Assembly: GCA_963799055.1 (NCBI GenBank)
Contig: CAWCVP010000013.1
Location: forward strand, 7,866 to 71,865
Reading direction: 5' to 3'
DNA length: 64,000 nucleotides
Source: an uncultured Candidatus Rokubacteria bacterium
Lineage (GTDB): Bacteria > Methylomirabilota > Methylomirabilia > Rokubacteriales > DASRDR01
Part shown: positions 6,183 through 47,808 of the stretch, piece by piece
Numbering within the stretch: position 1 is the first letter of the stretch
Layout: each line of letters opens with the position of its first letter
Notes under the pieces: generated by a model
What the model was told of the DNA's origin: nothing
Seen by the model: the letters and a program-made list of their open reading frames with translations, nothing else
Database searches by the model: none
Program-made: the position numbers and the translations under genes

Positions 6183-8292
6183 GTGACGACGCAGCCGGTC
6201 GGCGACGTGCTGGCGCCGTTCCCGCCGGAGCGGACGTGGCTCCTGCCCGCGCTCCAGGCGGTCCAGGCGGAGCGCGGCTGGCTCTCGGCCGACGACCTCG
6301 CAGCCGTCGCGCGGCACCTTCACGTGCCGGCGAGCGAGGTGTACGGCGTCGCGACGCACTACCCCGAGCTGCGGCTCGCCGCGCCGGGACGGCATGTCGT
6401 CCGCGTGTGCGCGGGCGTGTCCTGCCGGGTGAACGGGAGCCTCGGGCTCCTGGCGGAGCTCGGGCGGCGGCTCGGCGTCGAGGCCGGGCGCACGACGGCC
6501 GACGGCGAGGTCACGCTGGAAGAGGCGGACTGCTGCTTCGTCTGCAGCGTCGCGCCCGTGGTCGAGGTGGACCACGCGTATCTCGGGGCGCCGACGGCCG
6601 ACGCCGTGCTCGCCGCGTGCCGCGCGCCGCATGCCGCGCATCCGGCCGTGCCGTTCGGCGCGGCGATGACGGGTCCGCTCGCCGCGGCGACCCGCGACGC
6701 GCCGGCGGCGGCCGAGGGGCCGGCCGGAGCGACCGCCCGCGACCGGCTCGAGGGGCTCGTCGACTCGCGCGCGAGCGGGCCTGTCTCGGTCGACGACGCG
6801 GCTCCTCGTCGCGACGGGCTCCTGCGGGCTCGCCCGGGGCGCGGCGTCGACCCGCGACGCGCTCCGCGAGGCGGTCCGGCGCGCGGGGCTCGACGCCGTC
6901 GTCGAGGACGGCGCCTGCAGCGGCCTCTGCCACGCCCAGCCCGTGGTCGAGGTCCTGACGCCGGGCGTGCCGCGGCTCACGGTGGAGCGCGTCACCGTCG
7001 AGCGCGTTCCGGCTCTCCTGCCGGCTCCTGCGCGGGGCCGCCGACCACGGGCTCTCGGCGACGGCGTGGCCCCTGCGGCCCACCCGGTCCTCGGCGGCCA
7101 GGAGCGGGTGCTCGCCGAGCGCTGGGGCGCGCTCCGACCCGGCTCGCTCGACGACGCGCTGCTCGCGGGCAGCTACGCGGCGCTCGCGAGCGCGCTCGAC
7201 GCGGGCGACCCGGGCGCCGTGACCGCGGCCGTGAAGGGCGCGGGGCTCCTCGGCCGCGGCGGCGCGTACTTCCCGGCGGCGGTCAAGTGGGAGGGCTGCC
7301 GCGCCGCGCGCGGCGCGCCGAAGTACCTGGTCGCCAACGGCGAGGAGGGCGAGCCCGGCATCTTCAAGGACCGCCACCTGATGGAGGCCGATCCCCACCG
7401 GTTGCTCGAGGGCATGCTCCTGGCGGCGTACGCCGCGGGCGCGAGCCGGGGCATCCTCTATATCCACGGCGAGGCCGGCCTCTCCGCCGCGCGGTGCGCC
7501 GAGGCCGTGCGGGAGGCGTCCGGCGCGGGGCTCCTCGGCTCGCGCGTCCTCGGCACCGACTTCGCCTTCGAGGTCGAGATCCGGCGGGGCGCGGGCGGCT
7601 TCGTCCTGGGCGAGGAGACGGCGCTCCTCGAGTCGATCGAGGGGAAGCGGGCGATGCCGCGCCCGAAGCCGCCATTCCCCGTCGAGGCCGGCGTCCACGG
7701 GCGGCCCACGGTCATCAACAACGTGGAGACGCTCTCCGCGGTGCCGCTCATCGTCGGCGGCCGGCCCGAGGCCGCGCGGACGAAGCTCTTCGGCCTCTCG
7801 GGCCACGTCGCGCGGCCGGGCGTCGTCGAGGCCGCGCCGCCGCTGACGCTCCGGCGGCTCGTCGACGGGCTCGGCGGCGGCCTCGCCACCGGCCGGCCCC
7901 TCGGCGCGGTGGTGATCGGCGGGCCGTCGGGGATCGTCGTCCCGCCGGCCTTCCTCGACCGGCCGCTCGAGCGGCCGACGCTCTCGCCGGGGACCGGCGG
8001 GATCGCCGCCCTCGACGACCGGGCGGACGTCCGCGACGTGGTCCGCACGCTCCTCGCGTTCAACGCCCGCGAGTCCTGCGGCAAGTGCACGCCGTGCCGC
8101 GAGGGCACGGCCCGGCTGGTGGAGCTCCTCGACGGCGTCGGCCGCGCGGGCGTCGCGGAGTCGCTGGGCCAGCTCCGCGAGCTGGCGGACGTGGTCCAGC
8201 TCGCCTCGCTCTGCGGCCTGGGCCAGGCCGCGCCCTTGTCGCTCCGCGCGGGGCTCGAGCACTTCCCGGAGCGCTTGACGGGCGCCCGCTGA
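6183..8292 (+). CDS. NAD-dependent formate dehydrogenase beta / NuoE-NuoF fusion flavoprotein; apparent frameshift near 6780
   Basis: NuoE-like 2Fe-2S part (VCAGVSC...CCFVCSVAP) in frame 3. Then a thioredoxin-like 2Fe-2S domain (LLVATGSCGLARGA...GACSGLCHAQP) and NuoF motifs (GRGGAYFPAAVKW, ANGEEGEPGIFKDR, ESCGKCTPCREG) in frame 1. Confidence 0.85.
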
Positions 8293-8305: not shown

Positions 8306-9274
8306 ATGACGTCGGGCGCGGCCGGGGGACGCGGCCTCTGGGCCGCGGCGGCCGTCCCGATCGGCGCCGCCGTGGACGCGGCGCTCCTCGACGACGAGGC
8401 CTACGTCCGGACCCTCCTCCGCGAGTTCAACGCCGTCACTCCGGAGAACGCGATGAAGTGGGGGCCCGTGCATCCGGCCGAGCACGGGTGGGACTTCGGC
8501 CCGGCGGACCGGATCGTCGACTTCGCGGAGGCCCACCGCCTGCGCGTCCACGGTCACACGCTCGTCTGGCACGAGCAGCTGCCCGACTGGCTCACGCCGG
8601 CGCTGACGCGGCGCCGGGCGGCGCGCGTCCTCGCCGCGCACGTCGAGACCCTCGTGGGTCGCTACCGTGGGCGCGTGGCCGCGTGGGACGTCGTGAACGA
8701 GGCGGTGGGCGACGGTGGCCGGCTGCGCCCGAGCGTCTTCCTGCGCACCCTCGGGTCGGGCTACGTCGCGGAGGCCTTCCGCCTGGCCCACGCGGCCGAT
8801 CCGGCCGCCCGGCTCTACTACAACGACTACGGCGCCGAGGGCCGCGGCCCGAAGTCCGACGCGGTCTACGCGCTTGCGCGGCGCCTCGTCGAGCAGGACG
8901 TCCCGATCCACGGCGTCGGGCTCCAGATGCACCTGCGCGCCACCCATCCGCCCGCACCCGACGCCATCCGGGCGAACGTGGCGCGGCTCGCCGCGCTCGG
9001 CCTCGAGGTCCGCATCTCGGAGATGGACGTGCGGATCCGGCGCGTCCGGCGGCCCGATCCCCTGGCCGTCCAGGCGCGCGTGTATCACGACGCGATCGCC
9101 GCGTGCGCGGAAACGCCCGGCTTCGCCGGCGTGACGTTCTGGGGCGTGAGCGACGCGCACTCCTGGATCGACGCCCGCTTCGGCGAGGACGATCCCCTGC
9201 TCCTCGACGCCGACTACGCGCCGAAGCCCGCCTACTTCGGGGTCCGCGCCGCCCTGGCCGCGGGTCGGCGATGA
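8306..9274 (+). CDS. glycoside hydrolase family 10 (endo-1,4-beta-xylanase-like)
   Basis: FNAVTPENAMKW, HGHTLVWHEQLP, WDVVNEA (acid/base Glu), YYNDY, ISEMDV (nucleophile Glu), GVTFWGVSD. Intact. No recognisable signal peptide. Starts 14 nt after the stop of the 6183..8292 gene. Confidence 0.85.
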   Translation: MTSGAAGGRGLWAAAAVPIGAAVDAALLDDEAYVRTLLREFNAVTPENAMKWGPVHPAEHGWDFGPADRIVDFAEAHRLRVHGHTLVWHEQLPDWLTPALTRRRAARVLAAHVETLVGRYRGRVAAWDVVNEAVGDGGRLRPSVFLRTLGSGYVAEAFRLAHAADPAARLYYNDYGAEGRGPKSDAVYALARRLVEQDVPIHGVGLQMHLRATHPPAPDAIRANVARLAALGLEVRISEMDVRIRRVRRPDPLAVQARVYHDAIAACAETPGFAGVTFWGVSDAHSWIDARFGEDDPLLLDADYAPKPAYFGVRAALAAGRR

Positions 9275-12564: not shown

Positions 12565-15288
12565 ATGCGGCTGACCATCGACGCTCGGCCGGTGGAGGTG
12601 CCCGAGGGGGCGACGGTCCTCGACGCCGTCAACCGCCTCGGGATCGCGCTCCCCCAGCTCTGCAAGGACCCGGACCGGCCGCCGCTCGGCGCCTGCCGGA
12701 CGTGCCTGGTGGAGGTCGAGGGCCAGCGCGGTTTCCCCGCCTCGTGCCACCTGCCCGGCCGCGAGGCCATGGTCGTCCGCACCGACACGCCGGCGGTCGT
12801 CCGCATGCGCCGGGGCGTCCTCGACCTGACGCGCTCGATGCTCGAGGAGGGCGACGGGCGCGACGGCTTCGGCCAGCTCGGCGAGGCGGCGGCGCGCCAC
12901 GGGCTCGCGCGGCCGACGTGGGCGCCGCTCCACCGGCACGCCGTCGACGACTCGAAGTCGTTCTTCGTGCTCGACCGCGCGGCCTGCATCCTCTGCGGCC
13001 GCTGCACGACGGCCTGCGACGACGTCCAGCGGATCGGCGCGATCAGCCTCCTCGGGCGCGGCCACGCCGAGCGCGTCGGGGTCTTCGGCGACGGGCTGAT
13101 GGCCTCGTCGATCTGCACGTCCTGCGGCCAGTGCGTCGCCACCTGCCCGACCGGCGCGCTCCGCCCGAAGGAGACCCCCGCGGCGATCGTGCGGCGCGTC
13201 GAGACCACCTGCCCCTACTGCGGCGTCGGCTGCGGCATCGTGAGCGCGGTGCGGGACGACGGCCGGCTCGCCGTCATGGCCGACGACGTGCCGCGGAACC
13301 GCTCGAGCGAGGGCATGCTCTGCGTGAAGGGCCGGTTCGGCACGGGATTCGTTCACGCGAAGGACCGCATCGTCCGCCCGATGGTCAAGAGGGACGGCCG
13401 GTGGGAGACCGTCTCCTGGGACGCGGCCCTCGACGCGGCGGCGGCCGGGCTCGCGCGCCATCGGGGGCGGTTCGGCGCGCTCGCCTCGGCCAAGGCCACC
13501 AACGAGGACGGCTACCTCATCCAGAAGCTCTGCCGCGCCGTGATGGGCACGAACACCGTCGACCACTGCACGCGGCTCTGCCACTCCCCGTCGGTGGAGG
13601 CGATGCTGACGTCGATGGGCTCCGGCGCCACCTCGAACTCGTACGTCGACTACGAGGAGGCCGGGTGCCTCATGGTCGTCGGGGCGGACGCGAGCGCCAA
13701 CCACCCGGTGATCGCCATCCGCTTCCGCCGCGCCCACGCGCGCGGCGCTCGCATCATCGTGGTCAACCCGAAGCGGATCGAGCTGTGCGACTACGCCCAC
13801 GTGTGGATCCGTCCGCGCGCGGGGGCGGACGTCGCGCTCTTCAACGCGATGGGGCGGGTCATCCTCGACGAGGGGCTCTGGGACGAGGCCTTCGTCCGAT
13901 CGCGCACCGAGGACTTCGACGCCTGGCGGGCCGCGGTGGAGCCCTACACCCCGGAGCGCGCCGCGGCGCTCACGGGCGTGCCGGCGGCCGACATCGTCCA
14001 GGCCGCCCGCTGGTACGCGCGGCCGCCCTACGCGGGGTCGTGCCTCATCTGGGGGATGGGCATCACCCAGCACACGAACGGCACCGCGAACGCCCACGCG
14101 CTCCTGAACCTCGCCCTCGTCACCGGGCAGCTCGGGAAGCCCGCGAACGGGATCTCCCCGCTCCGCGGCCAGAACAACGTCCAGGGCTGCGGCGACGCCG
14201 GGTGCATCCCGACGAACCTCCCCGGCTACCAGCGCTACGACGACGCCACGCTCGCGAAGTTCGAGCGCGCGTGGGGCATCCGCCCACCGGCCGAGCCCGG
14301 CCTGGTCGTGACGGACATGGTGGAGGGCTGCCTCGACGGACGGATCCGCGCGATGTACGTGGTGGGCGAGAACCCGCTCCTGTCGGAGCCCGACCTTCAT
14401 CACGCGCGGAAGGCCCTCGGTCAGCTCGACTGCCTCGTCGTCCAGGACCTCTTCCTCCACGAGACCGCGGAGCTCGCCCACGTGTTCCTCCCGGCGGCCG
14501 GGTTCGCCGAGAAGGAGGGCACGTTCACGAACTCCGAGCGCCGCGTCCAGCGCGTCCGCCGGGTGCTCGACCCCGCCGGCGATGCGCGGCCGGACTGGTG
14601 GATCACGGCGGAGCTGGCGAAGCGCCTCGCGCGGCGGGTCGGCCTGCCGGCCGAGGGCTTCGACTACCGGGATGCCTCCCAGGTCTGGGACGAGATGGCC
14701 GGGCTGGTGCCCTTCCTCGCCGGGATCTCGCACGCGCGTCTCGACCGGGAGGGGGGGCTCCAGTGGCCCTGCCCGGCGCCCGATCACCCCGGCACGCCGT
14801 ATCTCTACGGGGAGAGCTTCCCGCGCGGCCTGGGGAAGTTCGTCCCGGTCACCCAGGGCGAGCGGGCGGCGGAGCTGCCGGATCCGGACTACCCGTTCGT
14901 CCTCAACACCGGACGGCTCCTCTACCACTGGCACGGGGGGACGATCACGCGGCGCGTCCCGGGGCTGCTCGAGCTCGAGCCGCGGCTCCGCGTGGCGATC
15001 CACCCCCTGGACGCGCGGCGCCTCCGGCTCCACGACGGCGACCCGGTCCGGCTCACCTCCCGGCGGGGGGAGCTGGAGGGGTACGCGCGGCTGACCGAGG
15101 ACGTGCGCGCCGGCGAGGTGTTCGTGCCCTTCGTGAAGCTCGCCGAGTCCGCGGCCAATTTCCTCACGAACTCCGCCCACGACCCGACGTCGAAGATCCC
15201 CGAATACAAGGTCTGCGCCGTGCGCGTGGAGGCGGTGCGCGCCGAGGCGGAGAGCCACTCCACCGCGGCCGCCCGTCCTCGCGCCTGA
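12565..15288 (+). CDS. fdhA: formate dehydrogenase alpha subunit (molybdopterin, NAD-linked FdsA/FdhA type), Cys variant
   Basis: N-terminal 2Fe-2S and 4Fe-4S cysteine clusters (CRTCLVEVEG, CILCGRCTTAC, CTSCGQCVATCP, CPYCGVGC). Active-site VDHCTRLCHSPSV has Cys where FdhF carries Sec. 907 aa, intact. Confidence 0.9.
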   Translation: MRLTIDARPVEVPEGATVLDAVNRLGIALPQLCKDPDRPPLGACRTCLVEVEGQRGFPASCHLPGREAMVVRTDTPAVVRMRRGVLDLTRSMLEEGDGRDGFGQLGEAAARHGLARPTWAPLHRHAVDDSKSFFVLDRAACILCGRCTTACDDVQRIGAISLLGRGHAERVGVFGDGLMASSICTSCGQCVATCPTGALRPKETPAAIVRRVETTCPYCGVGCGIVSAVRDDGRLAVMADDVPRNRSSEGMLCVKGRFGTGFVHAKDRIVRPMVKRDGRWETVSWDAALDAAAAGLARHRGRFGALASAKATNEDGYLIQKLCRAVMGTNTVDHCTRLCHSPSVEAMLTSMGSGATSNSYVDYEEAGCLMVVGADASANHPVIAIRFRRAHARGARIIVVNPKRIELCDYAHVWIRPRAGADVALFNAMGRVILDEGLWDEAFVRSRTEDFDAWRAAVEPYTPERAAALTGVPAADIVQAARWYARPPYAGSCLIWGMGITQHTNGTANAHALLNLALVTGQLGKPANGISPLRGQNNVQGCGDAGCIPTNLPGYQRYDDATLAKFERAWGIRPPAEPGLVVTDMVEGCLDGRIRAMYVVGENPLLSEPDLHHARKALGQLDCLVVQDLFLHETAELAHVFLPAAGFAEKEGTFTNSERRVQRVRRVLDPAGDARPDWWITAELAKRLARRVGLPAEGFDYRDASQVWDEMAGLVPFLAGISHARLDREGGLQWPCPAPDHPGTPYLYGESFPRGLGKFVPVTQGERAAELPDPDYPFVLNTGRLLYHWHGGTITRRVPGLLELEPRLRVAIHPLDARRLRLHDGDPVRLTSRRGELEGYARLTEDVRAGEVFVPFVKLAESAANFLTNSAHDPTSKIPEYKVCAVRVEAVRAEAESHSTAAARPRA

Positions 15289-41957: not shown

Positions 41958-43005
41958 ATGACCTTCATCTGGCCCGACATGCTGTGGCTGCTGCTGGCGG
42001 TGCCGGCGCTCGTCGGCGGGTACGTCCTGCTGGTGCGCCGGAGGAAGAAGGCCGCCCTCCGGTACGCGAGCCTGAGCCTCGTGCGGGAGGCCCTCGGCCC
42101 GGGTCAGGGCTGGCGGCGCCACCTGCCGCCGCTCCTCTTCCTGCTCTCGCTCGTCTCGATGCTCCTCGCGGTCGCCCGGCCGAGCGCCGTCGTCACGCTG
42201 CCCTCCCACCACGACACGGTGATCCTCGCCATGGACGTCTCGGGCAGCATGCGGGCCACCGACGTCCTGCCCAACCGGCTGGTCGCCTCCCAGGCCGCCG
42301 CCCGCGCCTTCGTCGCCGAGCAGCCGCGCCGCACCCGGATCGGCGTGGTCGCGTTCGCGGGCACGGCGGCCGTCGTGCAGGCACCCACCAGCAACCGGGA
42401 GGAGATCCTCGCCGCGATCGACCGCTTCCAGGTCCAGCGCGCGACCGCCATCGGCAGCGCGATCCTGGTCTCGCTGAAGATCATCTTCCCGGACATCGAG
42501 TTCGATCTCCGCTCGTCGGACCCGCGGCCCGACTCCGGGAAGATGGGCACCCCCCTCGCCTCGGGGAGCCGAGCCCAGCCGGCCGGCGTTCCAGCCGGTG
42601 CCGCCGGGCTCCTACGAGTCCGCCGTCATCATCCTCCTGACCGACGGCCGGACGACCACCGGCCCCGATCCCGTCGAGTCGGCCCGCATGGCCGCCGAGC
42701 GCGGCGTGCGCGTCTTCACGGTGGGCGTGGGCACGAAGGAGGGCGGCACCCTCTCCTACGAGGGCTGGTCGATGCGCGTCAGCCTCGACGAGGAGGCGCT
42801 CAAGGCGATCGCCTCCACGACGCGGGCCGAGTACTATCACGCGGGCACCGCCGCGGATCTGATGAAGATCTACCAGCGCCTGAACGCCCGGGTCGTGATG
42901 GAGCGGAAGGAGACCGAGATCACGGCGCTGTTCGCGGCGGCGGCGCTCGCCTTCGCGCTCGCCTCGGCGCTCCTGTCCGTCCTCTGGTACCACCGGATCC
43001 TGTAG
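41958..43005 (+). CDS. BatA-like membrane-anchored VWA-domain protein; apparent frameshift near 42580
   Basis: N-terminal TMs. The MIDAS motif ILAMDVSGSM is in frame 3. VIILLTDGRTTTGPDP...VFTVGVG and a C-terminal TM are in ORF 42598..43005. Confidence 0.8.
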
Positions 43006-43169: not shown

Positions 43170-43247
43170 TCAGCCGAGACCGCGGCGCCAGAGGAGCACG
43201 AACAGGGCGCCGAACCCCACCGCCGCGAGGATCTGGTCCCAGCTCAC
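43170..43247 (-). CDS. candidate 25-aa single-TM mini-protein, translationally coupled to the upstream oxidoreductase
   Basis: The GTG start overlaps the TGA stop of the 43244 gene (GTGA). VSWDQILAAVGFGALFVLLWRRGLG then TGA. No homology evidence. Confidence 0.25.
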   Translation of the reverse strand: MSWDQILAAVGFGALFVLLWRRGLG

Positions 43248-43930
43248 GGGTCTGCGCTCGCGCCGCCGTCGGTGCCCGTCCCGTCGACCGCCCGCAGCAC
43301 GGCGTCGACGAAATCCGCCTCCGGCACCGCCCCCTCGAACGACACCCGGTCGTTGACGACCGTCTTCGGCACGGCCATGACCATGTAGCGCTGCGCCAGG
43401 TCGGGGAACTCGTTCGCCTCGACGCAGTCGCCGCGGATCCACGGGGAGGCGATGGCGAGGTGATGAGCCAGGCGCACGGCCCGGGGGCAGTGCGGTCAGG
43501 TGGGCGTCGCGAAGACCTGGATGTGGACGCGCTCCTTCAGCTGGGAGAGGCGCTCGAGCGTGGCGGCCTGGAGCGACGGGGTGCCGGACGAGGCGGCGAT
43601 CATCGAGTCGATCAGGTTCGTGAACTCGTAGCCCATCGGAATGCCGAAGAAGCGGATCCCGTAGTCCTGGGCCCCCTCGACGACGATCGCCGGCACGCGG
43701 TCGACGCCGTAGGCCTCCGCCCGCGCCCGGTCGATGTGGAGGTTCAGGATCTCCACCGTCACCTGGTCCGAGCACTCGGCGACCTCCCGGACCAGCCGCT
43801 CGGTCTCGAGCGAGTACTCCGACGCCCCGAGCTGGGTCGTGAACACGACCAGCTTGACCGGCCCCGCGAGCTTGGCGAGCTCGGTCTTGACCGCCGTCCG
43901 GTCCCGGTCCGTCAGGATCGCCATGCGCAT
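43244..43930 (-). CDS. glutaredoxin-like protein disulfide oxidoreductase (two thioredoxin folds) with an in-frame TGA at 43496..43498; candidate Sec (UPHC) protein or a nonsense allele
   Basis: ORFs 43496..43930 and 43244..43477 share one frame. The minus strand reads ACG CCC ACC TGA CCG CAC TGC CCC = T P T * P H C P, exactly where the family has FxTPTCPxCP. The rest (ANEFPDLAQRYMVMAVPKTVVN) is collinear. Confidence 0.6.
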
Positions 43931-43967
43931 GCGCTCCGGATCACGCGGTCGGTGGACGCGCGACGTG

Positions 43968-45152
43968 TCACCCGAGGCTCCCGAGCCCGCGCTCGATGCG
44001 CGAGAGCGCCTCGCGGATGGTCTCGCGCGAGGCGGCGTAGGACAGGCGGAGGTACCCCTCGCCGTGCTCGCCGAACGCCGTCCCGCCCAGCACGGCCACG
44101 CCGGCCTGCTCGAGCAGGTGGGTGGCGATCTCCTTCGAGGGCCGCCCGAGCGCCTTCACGTTCGGGAACACGTAGAACGCGCCGCGGGGCCGGGCGCAGC
44201 TGACGCCGGGGATCCGGTTGAGCCCGTCCACGACGAGGTCGCGCCGCTGGCGGAACTCCTCCACCATCTGCTGCACCGGGGTGTCGTCGCCGCGCAGGGC
44301 GGCCAGGCCGGCGTGCTGGATGAAGGTCGCGGTGCAGGAGGCCGAGTTCGTCATGAGGCGCGTGAGGTGGTCGGCGAGCGCCTTCGGCATGACGCCGAAC
44401 CCGAGCCGCCAGCCGGTCATGGCGTAGGTCTTCGAGAACCCGTCCAGGATGATCGTCTGGGGCTTCATGCCGGGCAGGCTCGCGACCGACGCGAACTCGC
44501 CCTCGTAGAGGAACCGCCGGTAGATCTCGTCCGACAGCACGGGGACTCCGTAGTGCCGCGCCAGGTCGGCGATGCGGCCGACGTCGTCCGGCGACAGGAC
44601 GCCGCCCGTCGGGTTCTCCGGCGAGTTGATGATGATCAGCTTGGTCTTCCGCGAGACGCGCCGCTCGAGCTCCCGCAGGTCGAAGCCGAAGCCGCTCTCC
44701 TCGAGGAGGGGGATGGGGACCGGGACCCCGCCCACGAAGTTGATCACCGACTCGTAGATGGGGAAGCCGGGGTTCGGGTACACCACCTCGTCCCCGCGAT
44801 TCGTGAGCGCCATGATGACGAAGAACATGATGGGCTTGGCCCCGGGCGTGACCACCACCTCGTCCGGCGCCACCGGGACCCCGCGGGTCTTCTCGATGTG
44901 CTCGGCGATGGCCTCGCGCAGCTCGGGAAGCCCGGCCGACGGGCCGTAGTGGGTGGCTCCCGCGTCCAGCGCCCGCTTGGCCGCCTCGCGGATGTGCGCC
45001 GGCGTGTCGAAGTCGGGCTCGCCGATCTCGAGGTGCACGACCGACTTGCCCTGGCGCTCGAGCGCCTTCGCCCGCGCCAGCACCTCGAAGGCGGTCTCGG
45101 TCCCGAGCCGCCCCATTCGCTCCGCGATCATGGACTCGATCATCGCCGTCAC
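43968..45152 (-). CDS. class I/II PLP aminotransferase (aspartate/aromatic type)
   Basis: LEIGEPDFDTP, YGPSAGLPELREAI, INSPENPTG, DEIY, GFSKTYAMTGWRLG (PLP Lys), YLRLSYA. Intact. The start may instead be ATG 45143. Confidence 0.9.
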   Translation of the reverse strand: MTAMIESMIAERMGRLGTETAFEVLARAKALERQGKSVVHLEIGEPDFDTPAHIREAAKRALDAGATHYGPSAGLPELREAIAEHIEKTRGVPVAPDEVVVTPGAKPIMFFVIMALTNRGDEVVYPNPGFPIYESVINFVGGVPVPIPLLEESGFGFDLRELERRVSRKTKLIIINSPENPTGGVLSPDDVGRIADLARHYGVPVLSDEIYRRFLYEGEFASVASLPGMKPQTIILDGFSKTYAMTGWRLGFGVMPKALADHLTRLMTNSASCTATFIQHAGLAALRGDDTPVQQMVEEFRQRRDLVVDGLNRIPGVSCARPRGAFYVFPNVKALGRPSKEIATHLLEQAGVAVLGGTAFGEHGEGYLRLSYAASRETIREALSRIERGLGSLG

Positions 45153-47808
45153 CCTCCGTACCGCGCAATCTTACCTGCGGTCCCGCGCGCTCTCAAGGCG
45201 CCGCCTACGGCACGGCGAGGCCGGGGCGCGGGGCCGCGCGCTGGCGAACGCCCCTGCCACCACCAGACGAGCAGGGCGACCAGGGCCCCGGGGATGAAGA
45301 CCCAGTAGGGGGCGGGGCGGGCCGGGTTCGGCAGCTTGAGCTCGGCGATCGTGTAGCCCTGGTCGATCCCGAGCTTCCGCGCGAGGCTGCCGAACTTCAC
45401 CGCGGCGACCTGGATCTCCTCTCCCTGGGGCACCAGCGTCACGCCCGCGTTCCGGATCCGCTCCCGGCCGTCCCGACCCGGCCCCATCGGCAGCGCGACC
45501 ACCTTCCGGACCTCATCGCCCTCGACGTTCTCCCCTCTGATACCCAGCACCAGGAGCTGGTCGGGCACGAGCGTGTCGGCGACACGGTAGATGTCCTTTG
45601 CCGGCGCGCTCACGTACTCCGGGTGGAAGCGGTCGATCACCCAGTCGGGCCGGAAGAAGAGGAAGGTCGCCACGAGCAGGAGCGCGATCTCGAGCGCGTT
45701 GCAGCGGGTCCGGAACCAGGCCATCGTCGCCGCCGCGAAGAGGAGCGACGCCACGGTCGCGGTGACGGCGACCAGGGTCACCTCCCACCACGAGTGGACG
45801 CCGATGAACAGGATCTGCGGGTTGAAGACGAACACGAACGGCAGCACGGCGGTCCGGAAGCTGTACCACGTGGCCTGCATGCCGGTGGCGTTCGGATCGT
45901 CGCCGGAGATCGCCGCCGCCGCGTACGAGGCGAGGCCCACCGGGGGCGTGACGTCGGCCATGATGCCGAAGTAGAAGACGAAGAGGTGCACGGCGATCAG
46001 CGGGATCACCAGGCCGGACTGGGCCCCGAGCTCCACGATCACCGGGGCCATGATCGTCGCGACCAGGATGTAGTTCGCGGTGGTCGGCACGCCCGCCCCG
46101 ATCAGGAGGCAGACGACGGCGGTGAGCACCAGCATCACCAGCACGTTCCCGCCCGAGACGTACTCCACGAGCTCCGTCATCATGAAGCCCATGCCGGTGA
46201 GCGTGATCGCGCCCACGATCAGCCCGGCGCTGGCCGTCGCCACCCCGATGCCGATCATGTTGCGCGCCCCGAGCACGAGCCCCTTCCAGAGGTCGCCGAG
46301 CCCGCGCCGGAGCGCCGCGCGGACCTCGCCCTGGCGCCGGAGCAGCGCCAGGAGCGGCGGCTGCACCACCACCGTCGCCATGACCGTCGCCGTGGCCCAG
46401 AACGCCGACAGCCCGGGAGACAGCTCCTCGACCATCAGGCACCACAGGAGGACCACGAGGGGGACGAGGAAGTGCAGGCCCGCGCGCACCGTCGGCCACA
46501 GCTCCGGCAGCCGGATGACCGGCGCGCTCGGATCGTCCATCGGCAGGTCCGGGAAGCGGGCCGAGAAGGCCAGCAGCCCGAGGTAGCCGCCGGCCGTGAG
46601 GATCGCGAGCGACCCAGCCGGCCGACTCCCCGAAGACCCGCTGCACCCCGGTGACGACGTAGTAGATGACGACGACGGCGGCGAGCGTGCCCGCGGCGCC
46701 GAGCGCGCCCTCGATGAGCCGCTGGCGCCGCCGCGGCGGGCCGTGGCGCGGGATCGGCTTCAGGTCGTACTTGAGCGCCTCCAGGTGGACGATGTAGAAG
46801 AGCGCCACGTAGGAGATGATGGCCGGCAGCGCGGCGTGCTTGATGATCTCCGAGTACGGGATGCCGACGTACTCCACCATGAGGAACGCCGCCGCGCCCA
46901 TGACGGGCGGCATGAGCTGGCCGTTGATCGACGAGGCGGCCTCGATGGCGCCCGCCTTCACGCCCGAGTAGCCGGTCCGCTTCATCATCGGGATCGTGAA
47001 GATGCCGCCGGAGACGACGTTCGACACCGAGGAGCCGGAGACCACCCCGTTCAGCGCCGACGACAGCACCGCCACCTTGGCCGGGCCGCCCGCGGAGGTG
47101 GCCGAGCAGCGCGGTCGAGACCTGCATCATGTAGTTGCCGGCGCCCGCGATGTCGAGCAGCGTGCCGAAGAGCACGAACAGGAAGATGAACTGGACCGAG
47201 ACGCCGAGCGCCACGCCGTAGACGCCCTCGGTGGTGAGCCACATGTGCGAGACCATGCGCGACAGGCTCGCGCCCTTGTGCTGGATCACCTCGGGCATGT
47301 ACGGGCCGGCGAAGATGTAGGCGAGGAAGACGCCGGTCGTGATCAGCATGGCGGTGCCCATGGCCCGCCGCGTGGCCTCGAGCATGATCGCGATCCCGAC
47401 CAGCCCCACCACCATGTCCAGCGTGGTCGGCTGGCCCGGCCGCAGGGCGAGCTGGTTGTAGAAGACATAGAGATACGCGCCGCAGAACGCCCCTACGGTG
47501 GCGAGCACCCAGTCTGCCCACGGTATCCGCTGGCGCGACGACGACTTGAACGCCGGGAACGCCATGAACGCCAGGAAGATCGCCAGCGCGAGGTGGATCG
47601 CGCGGGCCTCGGTGTCGTTGAAGATGCCGAACCGCAGGACGAACGGGAGCGGCGAGGCGTACCAGACCTGGAAGATCGACCAGCCACCGGCCAGGAGAGC
47701 GAGGAACGTTCCGACCCGCCCGCCCGGGTCGCGGCCGCCGATGTCCGCTTCCTTGACGAGCTGATTCAGCTGGTCGCTGGTGTACGCCTTCGGCGTCTCG
47801 GCCTCCAT
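45149..47808 (-). CDS. TRAP transporter fused permease (system 2) with a C-terminal extra domain; at least two apparent frameshifts (about 47090 and 46612); 3' end uncertain
   Basis: Pieces lie in ORFs 46435..47808, 45513..47075 and 45149..46540: WSIFQVWYASPLPF, GGPAKVAVLSSALNGVVSGSSVSNVV, TANYILVATIMAPVIVELG, FYFGIMADVTPPVGLASYAAAAI, then a roughly 130-aa tail domain. Confidence 0.85.

Follow-up and report, generated by a model that had tools for sequence, protein, structure and literature searches.

An in-frame TGA in a two-thioredoxin-fold protein disulfide oxidoreductase gene of Rokubacteria very likely encodes selenocysteine

Selenocysteine (Sec) has been predicted before in the family of protein disulfide oxidoreductases (PDO) to which the gene described here belongs. 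The family is catalogued as a UxxC selenoprotein family "predicted with high confidence" (PMC13188914), the review's example being ABB15282.1, and it is listed as a selenoprotein for Carboxydothermus hydrogenoformans and Symbiobacterium thermophilum (PMC1794560). In C. hydrogenoformans it corresponds to a "glutaredoxin-like" TGA gene, CHY_0740 (PMC1914089), and the family is also listed in Asgard archaea. For the Methylomirabilota, a MAG with 63 predicted selenoprotein genes as well as Sec-type hydrogenases have been reported. Here we analyze a gene of a Rokubacteria/Methylomirabilota bacterium whose frame is interrupted by a TGA codon. Judged from the sequence and its relatives, the locus is very likely a genuine selenoprotein gene, and the in-frame TGA almost certainly encodes an active-site Sec. 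The gene is not novel, since the family has been listed as a selenoprotein since the mid-2000s and its UxxC pattern and mode of recoding are likewise established.

The gene lies on the minus strand of the window, that is, the whole 64-kb stretch of DNA that was analyzed (Table 1). From ATG 43930 to the stop TGA 43246..43244, the sole interruption of the frame is the TGA at 43498..43496, around which it reads ...VHIQVFATPT-(TGA)-PHCPRAVRLA.... The list of open reading frames breaks the locus into a 144-aa ORF (43496..43930) and a 77-aa ORF (43244..43477) in the same frame; the preliminary description had joined the two into one frame broken only by this TGA, and re-reading the strand gave exactly the same result. 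No other TGA in the window has a strong coding signal on both sides (GC3 of 0.98 and 0.96). The start is probably ATG 43924 rather than ATG 43930, which would add Met-Arg. The relatives begin with M/V-AILT and, when truncated, measure 142 aa, and the GGAG at 43937..43934 is only 3 nt ahead of the alternative ATG 43930. Neighboring genes show apparent frameshifts and the assembly looks indel-prone, as had already been remarked.

Table 1. Features of the candidate selenoprotein locus (positions in the window).
Feature	Positions	Strand	Basis or remark
Full selenoprotein CDS (predicted), 226 codons including Sec, plus stop TGA 43246..43244	43244..43924	minus	Frame, family profile
GGAG, Shine-Dalgarno-like	43934..43937	minus	Inferred from sequence; 9 nt before ATG 43924
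In-frame TGA, read as probable selenocysteine, first residue of U-P-H-C	43496..43498	minus	Sequence, conservation, alignment
Predicted redox motif U-P-H-C (TGA CCG CAC TGC)	43487..43498	minus	Sequence, relatives
N-terminal thioredoxin-fold unit, 142 aa, S-E-Y-S replacing CxxC	43499..43924	minus	Alignment to 1J08
C-terminal thioredoxin-fold unit, 3' of the Sec codon	43247..43495	minus	Pfam Thioredoxin_3, dN/dS
Candidate SECIS CCGGGC[CGUGC]GCCUGG	43468..43484	minus	5' arm 43484..43479, loop 43478..43474, 3' arm 43473..43468
Invariant block of codons +4 to +9 (CCC CGG GCC GTG CGC CTG), all six of them 4- or 6-fold degenerate	43469..43486	minus	16 genomes
25-aa hydrophobic peptide ORF, start overlapping the selenoprotein stop (GTGA)	43247..43170		Kept in 8/16 loci

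On the evidence of sequence profiles and alignments, the product is a two-thioredoxin-fold PDO of the TIGR02187 family. With Sec entered as Cys, it scored 260.1 bits with the NCBIfam model TIGR02187.2 ("PDO_seleno_TRX"), for which the cut-off, the curated NCBIfam equivalog threshold, is 185; the match spans residues 8-213 and profile positions 2-208 of 209. Over its full length, the protein aligns with the PDO structures 1J08 and 1A8L with E around 1e-44 (query residues 1-213, chain residues 1-225), the TGA falling on the first Cys of TPTCPYCP in both. Among the 36 full-length homologs listed, 35 have Cys at this position. The C-terminal half matches Pfam Thioredoxin_3 (residues 136-212, E 1.4e-21), and the N-terminal unit matches Pfam DUF7088 below the cut-off (27.0 bits vs 27.8). 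The second-fold motif [C/U]-P-x-C after ...VF-x-TPT is present as FATPT-U-PHC-PRAV, where homologs have TPTCPYCP. A glutaredoxin-like protein of two thioredoxin folds, with Sec in place of the N-terminal Cys of CxxC (UPHC), was the reading first put forward for this locus; the profile score and the PDO alignment agree with it, as do the conservation of the TGA, the purifying selection, and a SECIS-type hairpin at a suitable spacing, all described below.

The N-terminal unit differs from that of the two-active-site enzymes. Its ...GASEYS... aligns to ...HCQYC... of 1J08 (relatives have SEYS or SEYC), and the second CxxC of the Pyrococcus-type PDO is absent (S-E-Y-S vs C-Q-Y-C). This unit is predicted not to be redox-active, since the CxxC of the family is replaced by S-E-Y-S. 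By the CxxC chemistry of thioredoxin-fold proteins, Sec is presumed to be the attacking nucleophile and the Cys encoded at 43489..43487 the resolving residue. Relatives carry the name AhpF in public and JGI/IMG records. We rejected this identity because the scores are far below the cut-offs (78.8 bits vs 502.9 for the AhpF model TIGR03140) and the protein, with 226 aa, has no fused flavoprotein reductase domain. No reductase or peroxiredoxin gene adjoins the selenoprotein gene at this locus. A Pyr_redox_2 flavoprotein gene does adjoin one Cys-type relative (L141), which is a hint only.

A SECIS-like structure was sought 3' of the UGA. The bSECIS criteria (PMC13188914) are a loop of 3-9 nt with G within its first two nucleotides, a stem of 4-16 bp, a spacing of 16-37 nt, and an energy of at most -7.5 kcal/mol. 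The hairpin CCGGGC[CGUGC]GCCUGG lies within all four limits: its stem has 6 bp including one G.U, its 5-nt loop has G-U at positions 2-3 and begins 17 nt after the UGA, and its energy is -9.6 kcal/mol. It is unchanged in 17/17 sequences, and when the consensus sequence of the relatives is folded, it makes up the core of the minimum-energy structure. This hairpin is most likely the functional SECIS.

The preliminary description had drawn two other GC-rich hairpins downstream of the UGA and had not named this third one. Both can indeed be drawn in the window but neither is conserved, and the likely SECIS is instead the structure at 43484..43468. The first, CGCAC...GUGCG, is the minimum-energy fold in the window, yet it needs G at 43493 (CCG), which is C in 15 of the 16 relatives; the remnant that relatives can form, CAC.GCC[CCCG]GGC.GUG, falls outside the bSECIS rules, with a spacing of only 10 nt and a loop lacking G at its start. 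In the second, GGGCC-GUGCGCCU-GGCUC, most relatives have a mismatch, G.G or G.A, as it draws on the third base of codon +10, which is variable. A long-range stem proposed by RNAalifold (alignment columns 31-37 with 69-76) was also set aside, since several of its pairs are broken and it shows no covariation. At gathering thresholds, no Rfam RNA family was found in the window.

Taken by itself, the hairpin of the window does not stand out in such a GC-rich sequence: 27.5% of synonymous resamples yield an equally or more stable bSECIS-type hairpin, the fold z-score of the region is only -0.7, and a competing hairpin, CGCAC.UGC...GGC.GUGCG, is more stable at -12.4 kcal/mol. The invariant block of Table 1, which coincides with the bases of the candidate hairpin, comes from comparison with relatives. 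Across 16 genomes, codon diversity is 0 in columns +4 to +9 compared with a mean of 0.36 elsewhere; among the other degenerate columns 7/99 are invariant, and 0/100,000 permutations gave a value as low (p<1e-5). The fixed codons include CGG and CTG, which are not the preferred synonyms of this gene. Of 125 Sec-type genes, 108 have a hairpin with 5 bp or more whose loop follows the UGA at 17, 18, 21, or 22 nt, whereas among synonymous resamples the share is 18%; the mean energy was -8.75 kcal/mol, against -3.88 kcal/mol in the resamples. In the subclass with a 6-nt loop, one stem pair is G-C in 20 sequences, A-U in 10, and C-G in 1, and 96.4% of the cells are paired. For the candidate hairpin itself, the motif-defined alignment (A3) has 86.8% of the cells paired vs 22-51% with the partners slid. 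No covariation was seen when the alignment of the window's own hairpin class was checked, because the sequence is nearly invariant. Five Cys-type genes had weak hairpins or none (0, -4.9, -7.1, 0, and -2.8 kcal/mol). The invariant synonymous sites, the family-wide excess, the covarying pair, and the weak or missing hairpins of the Cys-type genes indicate, at the level of sequence comparison, that the hairpin is under selection and is not a mere by-product of GC-richness.

The genes for Sec synthesis and insertion were looked for in the window and in the related loci. A tblastn search with the E. coli SelA, SelB, and SelD proteins against the window and 143 loci gave nothing in the window or in the Rokubacteria loci, and no selA, selB, selD, or tRNA-Sec was found in the window or in 16 related loci. 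ARAGORN predicted no tRNA in the window. Its absence of sel genes had been pointed out beforehand, as had the Cys type of fdhA (12565..15288), which is uninterrupted and reads HCTRLCHSPSV. In the related loci a single tRNA was predicted, a 96-nt "tRNA-Pro(GGG)" in L006, which was discarded as spurious because Rfam gave it no tRNA match even with E relaxed to 1 and because it lies in ordinary GC-rich sequence. On three metagenomic contigs (L045, L027, and L128), selA adjoins Sec-type PDO genes.

A UGA recoded through a SECIS and SelB could also be read as Cys by a tRNA of the tRNA(ReC)/selC* type, or as a mixture of Cys and Sec set by the selenium supply. Such tRNAs can decode UGA with a downstream SECIS as Cys and occur in genomes with Sec-type genes (PMC13582414), and the sequence of the window fits either amino acid. 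We nevertheless regard this reading as very unlikely: no tRNA(ReC)/selC* is present in the window or the related loci, Cys-only insertion would leave a clade-wide UGA and SECIS without obvious advantage over TGC, and the Methylomirabilota are reported to be rich in selenoproteins. Sec remains the preferred residue at the UGA.

The TGA has also to be considered as a true stop, which would give a 142-aa single-fold protein, the downstream domain being untranslated or made separately from GTG 43477. This is how the gene is commonly recorded. Fragments of 142 aa named "AhpF" stand in public records and come from gene callers, and the GTG at 43477 is indeed present. Against this, dN/dS is 0.106 over codons +1 to +70 after the TGA, tighter than the 0.235 found upstream, which argues that the downstream region is translated and under strong purifying selection. 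In alignments to full-length homologs, their catalytic Cys falls at the TGA. The stretch from the TGA to the GTG codes for the invariant P-H-C-P-R-A, which contains the resolving Cys; a product begun at GTG 43477 would be without the entire redox motif, and this GTG lies inside the hairpin loop with no ribosome-binding site ahead of it. Termination at this codon is highly improbable, slightly more so than its reading as Cys. The C-terminal unit lies past the UGA, and its translation would require recoding of this codon.

A sequencing or assembly error for TGC or TGT, or a recent inactivating mutation, has a negligible probability. The frameshifts of the neighboring genes would favor it, and one metagenomic contig (L137) with TTA at this codon shows that single-base differences at this position occur in databases. 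The TGA is nevertheless found in 16/16 related Rokubacteria/Methylomirabilota genomes with 75-93% amino-acid identity, which settles in favor of TGA the question, raised in the preliminary description, of whether close relatives carry TGA or TGC. These are independent MAGs from several projects and different assemblers, and the codon is TGA in 17/17 aligned sequences. About 70 close protein clusters agree, their members being called as fragments of 141-142 aa; of the 150 nearest representatives of 50%-identity clusters, 63 stop right at ...TPT, and TPT-TGA-PYCP followed by an in-frame domain occurs on at least 120 metagenomic contigs, whereas no relative above 60% identity has Cys at the site. 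The occurrence of the TGA in independent assemblies removes the caveat of a sequencing error.

TGA reassignments exist in other uncultured bacterial lineages, but a genome-wide reassignment to a standard amino acid (Trp, Gly) in this one, of equally negligible probability, is refuted by the stop-codon usage of the window, where TGA is the commonest stop and ends 21 of 41 confident ORFs, this gene included, and where only one in-frame TGA is flanked by coding signal; no other in-frame TGA of the selenoprotein type was found in the 64-kb window or in 280 kb of related Rokubacteria loci, in which the remaining same-frame TGAs all fall between adjacent genes.

With Sec as the residue at the UGA, we infer the following course, from SelB/SECIS-dependent recoding to the redox partner and the physiological substrate. 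SelB carrying Sec-tRNA(Sec) would bind CCGGGC[CGUGC]GCCUGG as the ribosome meets the UGA at 43498..43496, so that Sec would be inserted without termination, and the ribosome would go on to translate the second thioredoxin fold, ending at the real stop, 43246..43244. With the CxxC of the first fold gone, the sole redox center would be the U-P-H-C of the second. If PDO and the N-terminal domain of AhpF are taken as models, a substrate disulfide would be attacked by the selenolate and the selenenylsulfide resolved by the neighboring Cys; a thioredoxin-reductase-like flavoprotein, whose gene would lie at another place in the genome, would then re-reduce the oxidized U-C pair. A bolder interpretation is that an unusual form of the family, which would be Sec-only (no Cys-type relative above 60% identity), has become fixed in soil Rokubacteria. 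It has UPHC with a DsbA-like P-H, has lost the N-terminal CxxC, and is followed by the 25-aa peptide. Together, these traits might mark a distinct selenium-dependent, membrane-associated thiol-oxidizing module rather than a conventional cytoplasmic reductase, an idea that we consider unlikely, with an outside chance of being correct.

The main value of the finding is for annotation. Gene callers truncate the gene at the Sec codon, and once the UGA is read as Sec, the redox enzyme is complete again; in the collections searched, the Rokubacteria orthologs and many other family members stand as truncated proteins of 141-142 aa. The gene is a further data point for the Methylomirabilota as heavy users of selenium.

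The closest known system is the Sec-type PDO family itself. Its members share with this protein the NCBIfam model, the two thioredoxin folds, and Sec as the first residue of the C-terminal UxxC, and the bacterial ones likewise have a hairpin just downstream of the UGA. What differs here is the Rokubacteria/Methylomirabilota host, the UPHC in place of the commoner P-Y, and the loss of the N-terminal CxxC (SEYS). The candidate hairpin fits the bSECISearch consensus model in loop, stem, G-U, spacing, and energy, although the flanks of its loop, C...C, are unable to form the N1-N2 pair that the most frequent bSECIS loop pattern has. In the Sec thioredoxins and glutaredoxins of bacteria (UxxC), Sec also stands for the N-terminal Cys of CxxC and the SECIS is also in the coding region just downstream, but these consist of a single domain and fall into other Pfam families (PF00085, PF00462).

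Full-length alignments were obtained with the PDOs of Pyrococcus furiosus and P. horikoshii (1A8L, 1J08), Aquifex aeolicus (2AYT, 2YWM), and Aeropyrum pernix (2HLS), with E from 1e-44 to 5e-30. These PDOs have in common with this protein the C-terminal active site ...VF-TPT-[C/U]-P-x-C-P..., where they use Cys and where the nucleophile is here encoded by UGA, and 1J08 has an N-terminal CxxC (HCQYC) where this protein has SEYS. The N-terminal domain of AhpF (1HYU, 1ZYN, 4O5Q) has the same tandem thioredoxin folds (E around 1e-15), and its single redox-active CxxC sits in the second fold, as in this protein. In AhpF this domain is fused to a thioredoxin-reductase-like flavoprotein, whereas here it stands alone. 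By the loss of the N-terminal CxxC, the protein resembles the AhpF N-terminal domain more than the Pyrococcus enzymes, and by this analogy an AhpF-like role, with electrons passing from a flavoprotein reductase to a peroxiredoxin-type acceptor, is plausible.

The PDO gene of the window is very probably a genuine Sec-encoding gene: the conserved TGA, the constrained downstream domain, the family assignment and a SECIS-type hairpin agree with the preliminary description of a candidate selenoprotein carrying Sec in a UPHC motif. The minus-strand frame from ATG 43930 to its terminal TGA is interrupted by a single codon, around which the translation reads ...VHIQVFATPT*PHCPRAVRLA...; as had been read before, the mechanical ORF list breaks this one frame into 144-aa and 77-aa pieces. 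The start is probably the second ATG, because relatives begin M/V-AILT, the truncated forms are 142 aa long, and a GGAG precedes that ATG by 9 nt. The corrected gene model and the corrected candidate SECIS, the useful outputs of this analysis, are listed in the table.

Features of the window and of related loci
Feature	Sequence	Position	Strand	Remark
PDO gene, corrected model	window	43924..43244	-	stop TGA 43246..43244
Sec codon (TGA)	window	43498..43496	-	
Candidate SECIS hairpin	window	43484..43468	-	core of the minimum-energy fold of the relatives' consensus
25-codon hydrophobic ORF, V-SWDQILAAVGFGALFVLLWRRGLG	window	43170..43247	-	GTG start overlaps PDO stop (GTGA)
Aspartate aminotransferase-family gene	window	43968..45152	-	upstream of PDO gene
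vWA-domain gene	window	41958..43005	+	split across frames
TRAP-transporter fused permease gene	window	45149..47808	-	split across frames
fdhA	window	12565..15288	+	Cys-type
NuoF-like subunit gene	window	6943..8292	+	upstream of fdhA
selA	L045	4510..5925		2.4 kb upstream of PDO gene
PDO gene, Sec-type	L045	about 8331..9100		OsmC-family gene 3'
ARAGORN 'tRNA-Pro(GGG)'	L006	3741..3836	-	false positive
PDO homolog (protein P0010)	L137 (JGI contig Ga0597037_0494071)	177..836		TTA at Sec codon
Cys-type PDO relative, gene context	L139	1..1651		PDO gene between genes for hybrid-cluster protein, desulfoferrodoxin and rubrerythrin
Cys-type PDO relative, gene context	L141	1..477		Pyr_redox_2 flavoprotein gene adjoins the PDO gene

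For the family searches, Cys was entered at the TGA position. The window protein scored 260.1 bits against the NCBIfam equivalog TIGR02187.2 ('PDO_seleno_TRX', protein disulfide oxidoreductase; curated cut-off 185), Pfam placed Thioredoxin_3 in its C-terminal half, and it aligned over its full length with the Pyrococcus PDO structures 1J08 and 1A8L (E about 1e-44), the alignment to the AhpF N-terminal domain being weaker. The first Cys of the TPTCPYCP site of both structures falls on the TGA position; score and alignment thus bear out a two-thioredoxin-fold disulfide oxidoreductase with TGA at the first Cys of its CxxC. The CxxC of the N-terminal unit, HCQYC in 1J08, is S-E-Y-S in the window protein, and therefore the U-P-H-C of the second fold is the only redox centre. 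Rokubacteria fragments of 142 aa are named 'alkyl hydroperoxide reductase subunit AhpF' in public sources, a mis-annotation, since the AhpF model gives 78.8 bits against a cut-off of 502.9.

No SelA, SelB or SelD homolog was found in the window or in the 16 related Rokubacteria/Methylomirabilota loci, no tRNA gene or Rfam match in the window, and no tRNA-Sec in the 16 loci. The lack of sel genes, already flagged as a caveat along with the Cys-type fdhA, says little for a multi-megabase genome. The fdhA gene, for a formate dehydrogenase alpha subunit (TIGR01591, 727 bits), runs without interruption and encodes Cys where Sec-type enzymes carry Sec (HCTRLCHSPSV); a Cys-type fdhA does not conflict with the use of Sec by other genes of this genome. 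Three metagenomic contigs (L045, L027 and L128) carry a selA homolog no more than a few kb from a Sec-type PDO gene, the selA of L045 being bona fide (TIGR00474, 533 bits); three cases in about 120 mostly short contigs (at least 120 in the scan) is above the chance expectation of linkage. The 96-nt 'tRNA-Pro(GGG)' that ARAGORN reported in the related locus L006, 6 kb from the PDO gene, is as long as a tRNA-Sec or allo-tRNA; it resembles GC-rich coding DNA and matches no Rfam tRNA even at E <=1. A minor alternative to Sec insertion is that the UGA is read as Cys, in a SECIS-dependent manner, by tRNA(ReC), as drawn from PMC13582414.

Genome-wide reassignment of TGA is excluded, since TGA is the commonest stop codon of the confident ORFs in the window (21/41) and the proposed Sec codon is the only TGA in the 64 kb flanked on both sides by strong coding signal (third-position GC 0.98 and 0.96). 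About 70 clusters with 77-99% identity came out of a protein search, each 141-142 aa long and covering 62% of the query, so gene callers had stopped at the same codon; full-length matches appeared only at <=60% identity. Scanning species-representative genomes gave 16 loci from several projects (75-93% identity to the query), titled as Rokubacteria, Methylomirabilota or Methylomirabilia MAGs in 13 cases and 'uncultured bacterium' in 3. Whether close relatives carry TGA or TGC had been posed as a check: all 16 have TGA, after which the frame continues with P-[H/Y]-C-P-R-A-V and the conserved domain, and sequencing error is dismissed as its source, although the assembly is indel-prone. Pairwise dN/dS was 0.235 before the TGA versus 0.106 past it (codons +1 to +70), a substitution pattern indicating that the downstream domain is translated and constrained. 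No other in-frame TGA of this kind was found in 280 kb of related loci, where the remaining same-frame TGAs part adjacent genes. In the best 'full-length' homolog, in locus L137, the Sec codon reads TTA (Leu), one base away from TGA and very rare in this 70% GC gene, yet the hairpin CCGGGC[CGUGC]GCCUGG is intact; the probable cause is an error in sequencing or a mutation of TGA to TTA in the very recent past.

In the bSECIS consensus a stem of 4-16 bp carries an apical loop of 3-9 nt with G among its first two bases, in most cases with G or U next; the UGA-to-loop distance is 16-37 nt and the free energy <= -7.5 kcal/mol (PMC13188914). Neither hairpin first proposed just 3' of the UGA held up in relatives: CGCAC...GUGCG needs G 43493, unique to the window, its conserved core having 10 nt spacing and a CCCG loop, and GGGCC-[sequence]-GGCUC has mismatches in most of them. 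The relatives' consensus instead folds around a third hairpin, the one that L137 retains; in the window its stem of 6 bp closes a loop of 5 nt whose positions 2-3 are G-U, the spacing is 17 nt and the free energy -9.6 kcal/mol. Its sequence is identical in 17/17 and matches exactly in position a run of six codons (+4 to +9), each 4- or 6-fold degenerate, in which the 16 genomes show zero synonymous variation; in the rest of the gene 7/99 degenerate columns are invariant (mean codon diversity 0.36), and 0 of 100,000 permutations were as low as this block. For several of these invariant codons (CGG, CTG), the gene favours other synonyms.

Because GC-rich sequence readily forms hairpins, synonymous codons were resampled as a control, with every protein sequence left unchanged and codons drawn at the usage of the gene concerned. 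The window hairpin alone was unexceptional, 27.5% of resamples being as good. Among 125 unique Sec-type genes, however, 108 carried a hairpin with 5 bp or more whose loop lay 17, 18, 21 or 22 nt after the UGA versus 18% expected, and mean energy was -8.75 versus -3.88 kcal/mol in resamples; five Cys-type homologs, a natural control, gave 0, -4.9, -7.1, 0 and -2.8 kcal/mol. In the first 89 unique sequences CGUG was the commonest loop start (53/89) and each stem position held several Watson-Crick pair types. With subclasses set by amino-acid motif only, 96.4% of cells were paired in the 6-nt-loop class (n=32) versus 16-55% with slid partners. One stem pair there is G-C in 20, A-U in 10 and C-G in 1 (0/500 shuffles match); in this pair a switch among Arg, Gln and Pro codons goes with a synonymous switch of Leu codon. 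The window's 5-nt-loop class (n=39) had 86.8% paired versus 22-51% slid and no covariation, because it is nearly invariant. Conservation, position and the family-wide pattern support the candidate SECIS of the window; covariation in its own clade is no part of that support.

The aspartate aminotransferase-family gene precedes the PDO gene in 16/16 Rokubacteria loci, directly so in most, with no functional link apparent. The overlap of the 25-codon ORF with the PDO stop suggests translational coupling; this ORF, found by tblastn 3' of the PDO gene in 8/16 of the loci at 55-80% identity, may encode a small membrane peptide. Relatives match the pieces of the vWA and TRAP permease genes contiguously or in shifted frames, which fits indel errors in the assembly, as had been cautioned. 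The neighbours of the Cys-type PDO genes of L141, a thioredoxin-reductase-like flavoprotein, and L139 suggest a role in oxidative-stress defence.

Judging from the family, SelB with Sec-tRNA(Sec) would bind the hairpin, so that the UGA is read as Sec; disulfides of the substrate would undergo exchange with the U-P-H-C centre via a selenenylsulfide intermediate, and a thioredoxin-reductase-type flavoprotein would return that centre to its reduced form.

Sec-type members are systematically recorded as truncated proteins of ~141-155 aa ending ...TPT, often named 'AhpF', in the protein collections searched: among the nearest 150 representatives (clusters at 50% identity), 63 stop precisely there and 41 have TPTCxxC. 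A metagenome scan for TPT-TGA-P-Y-C-P found at least 120 contigs, and among the listed matches 80/80 translated loci were clear family members. The family is listed for both Carboxydothermus hydrogenoformans and Symbiobacterium thermophilum (PMC1794560), CHY_0740 is a 'glutaredoxin-like' TGA gene (PMC1914089), and PMC13188914 counts the family among UxxC selenoproteins and notes it in Asgard archaea too. For Methylomirabilota, Sec-type hydrogenases are reported (PMC13582414), and 63 predicted selenoprotein genes are cited for one MAG (PMC13188914). The PDO of the window is an ordinary member of this selenoprotein family, which was already established, and large selenoproteomes are a known trait of the phylum it comes from.
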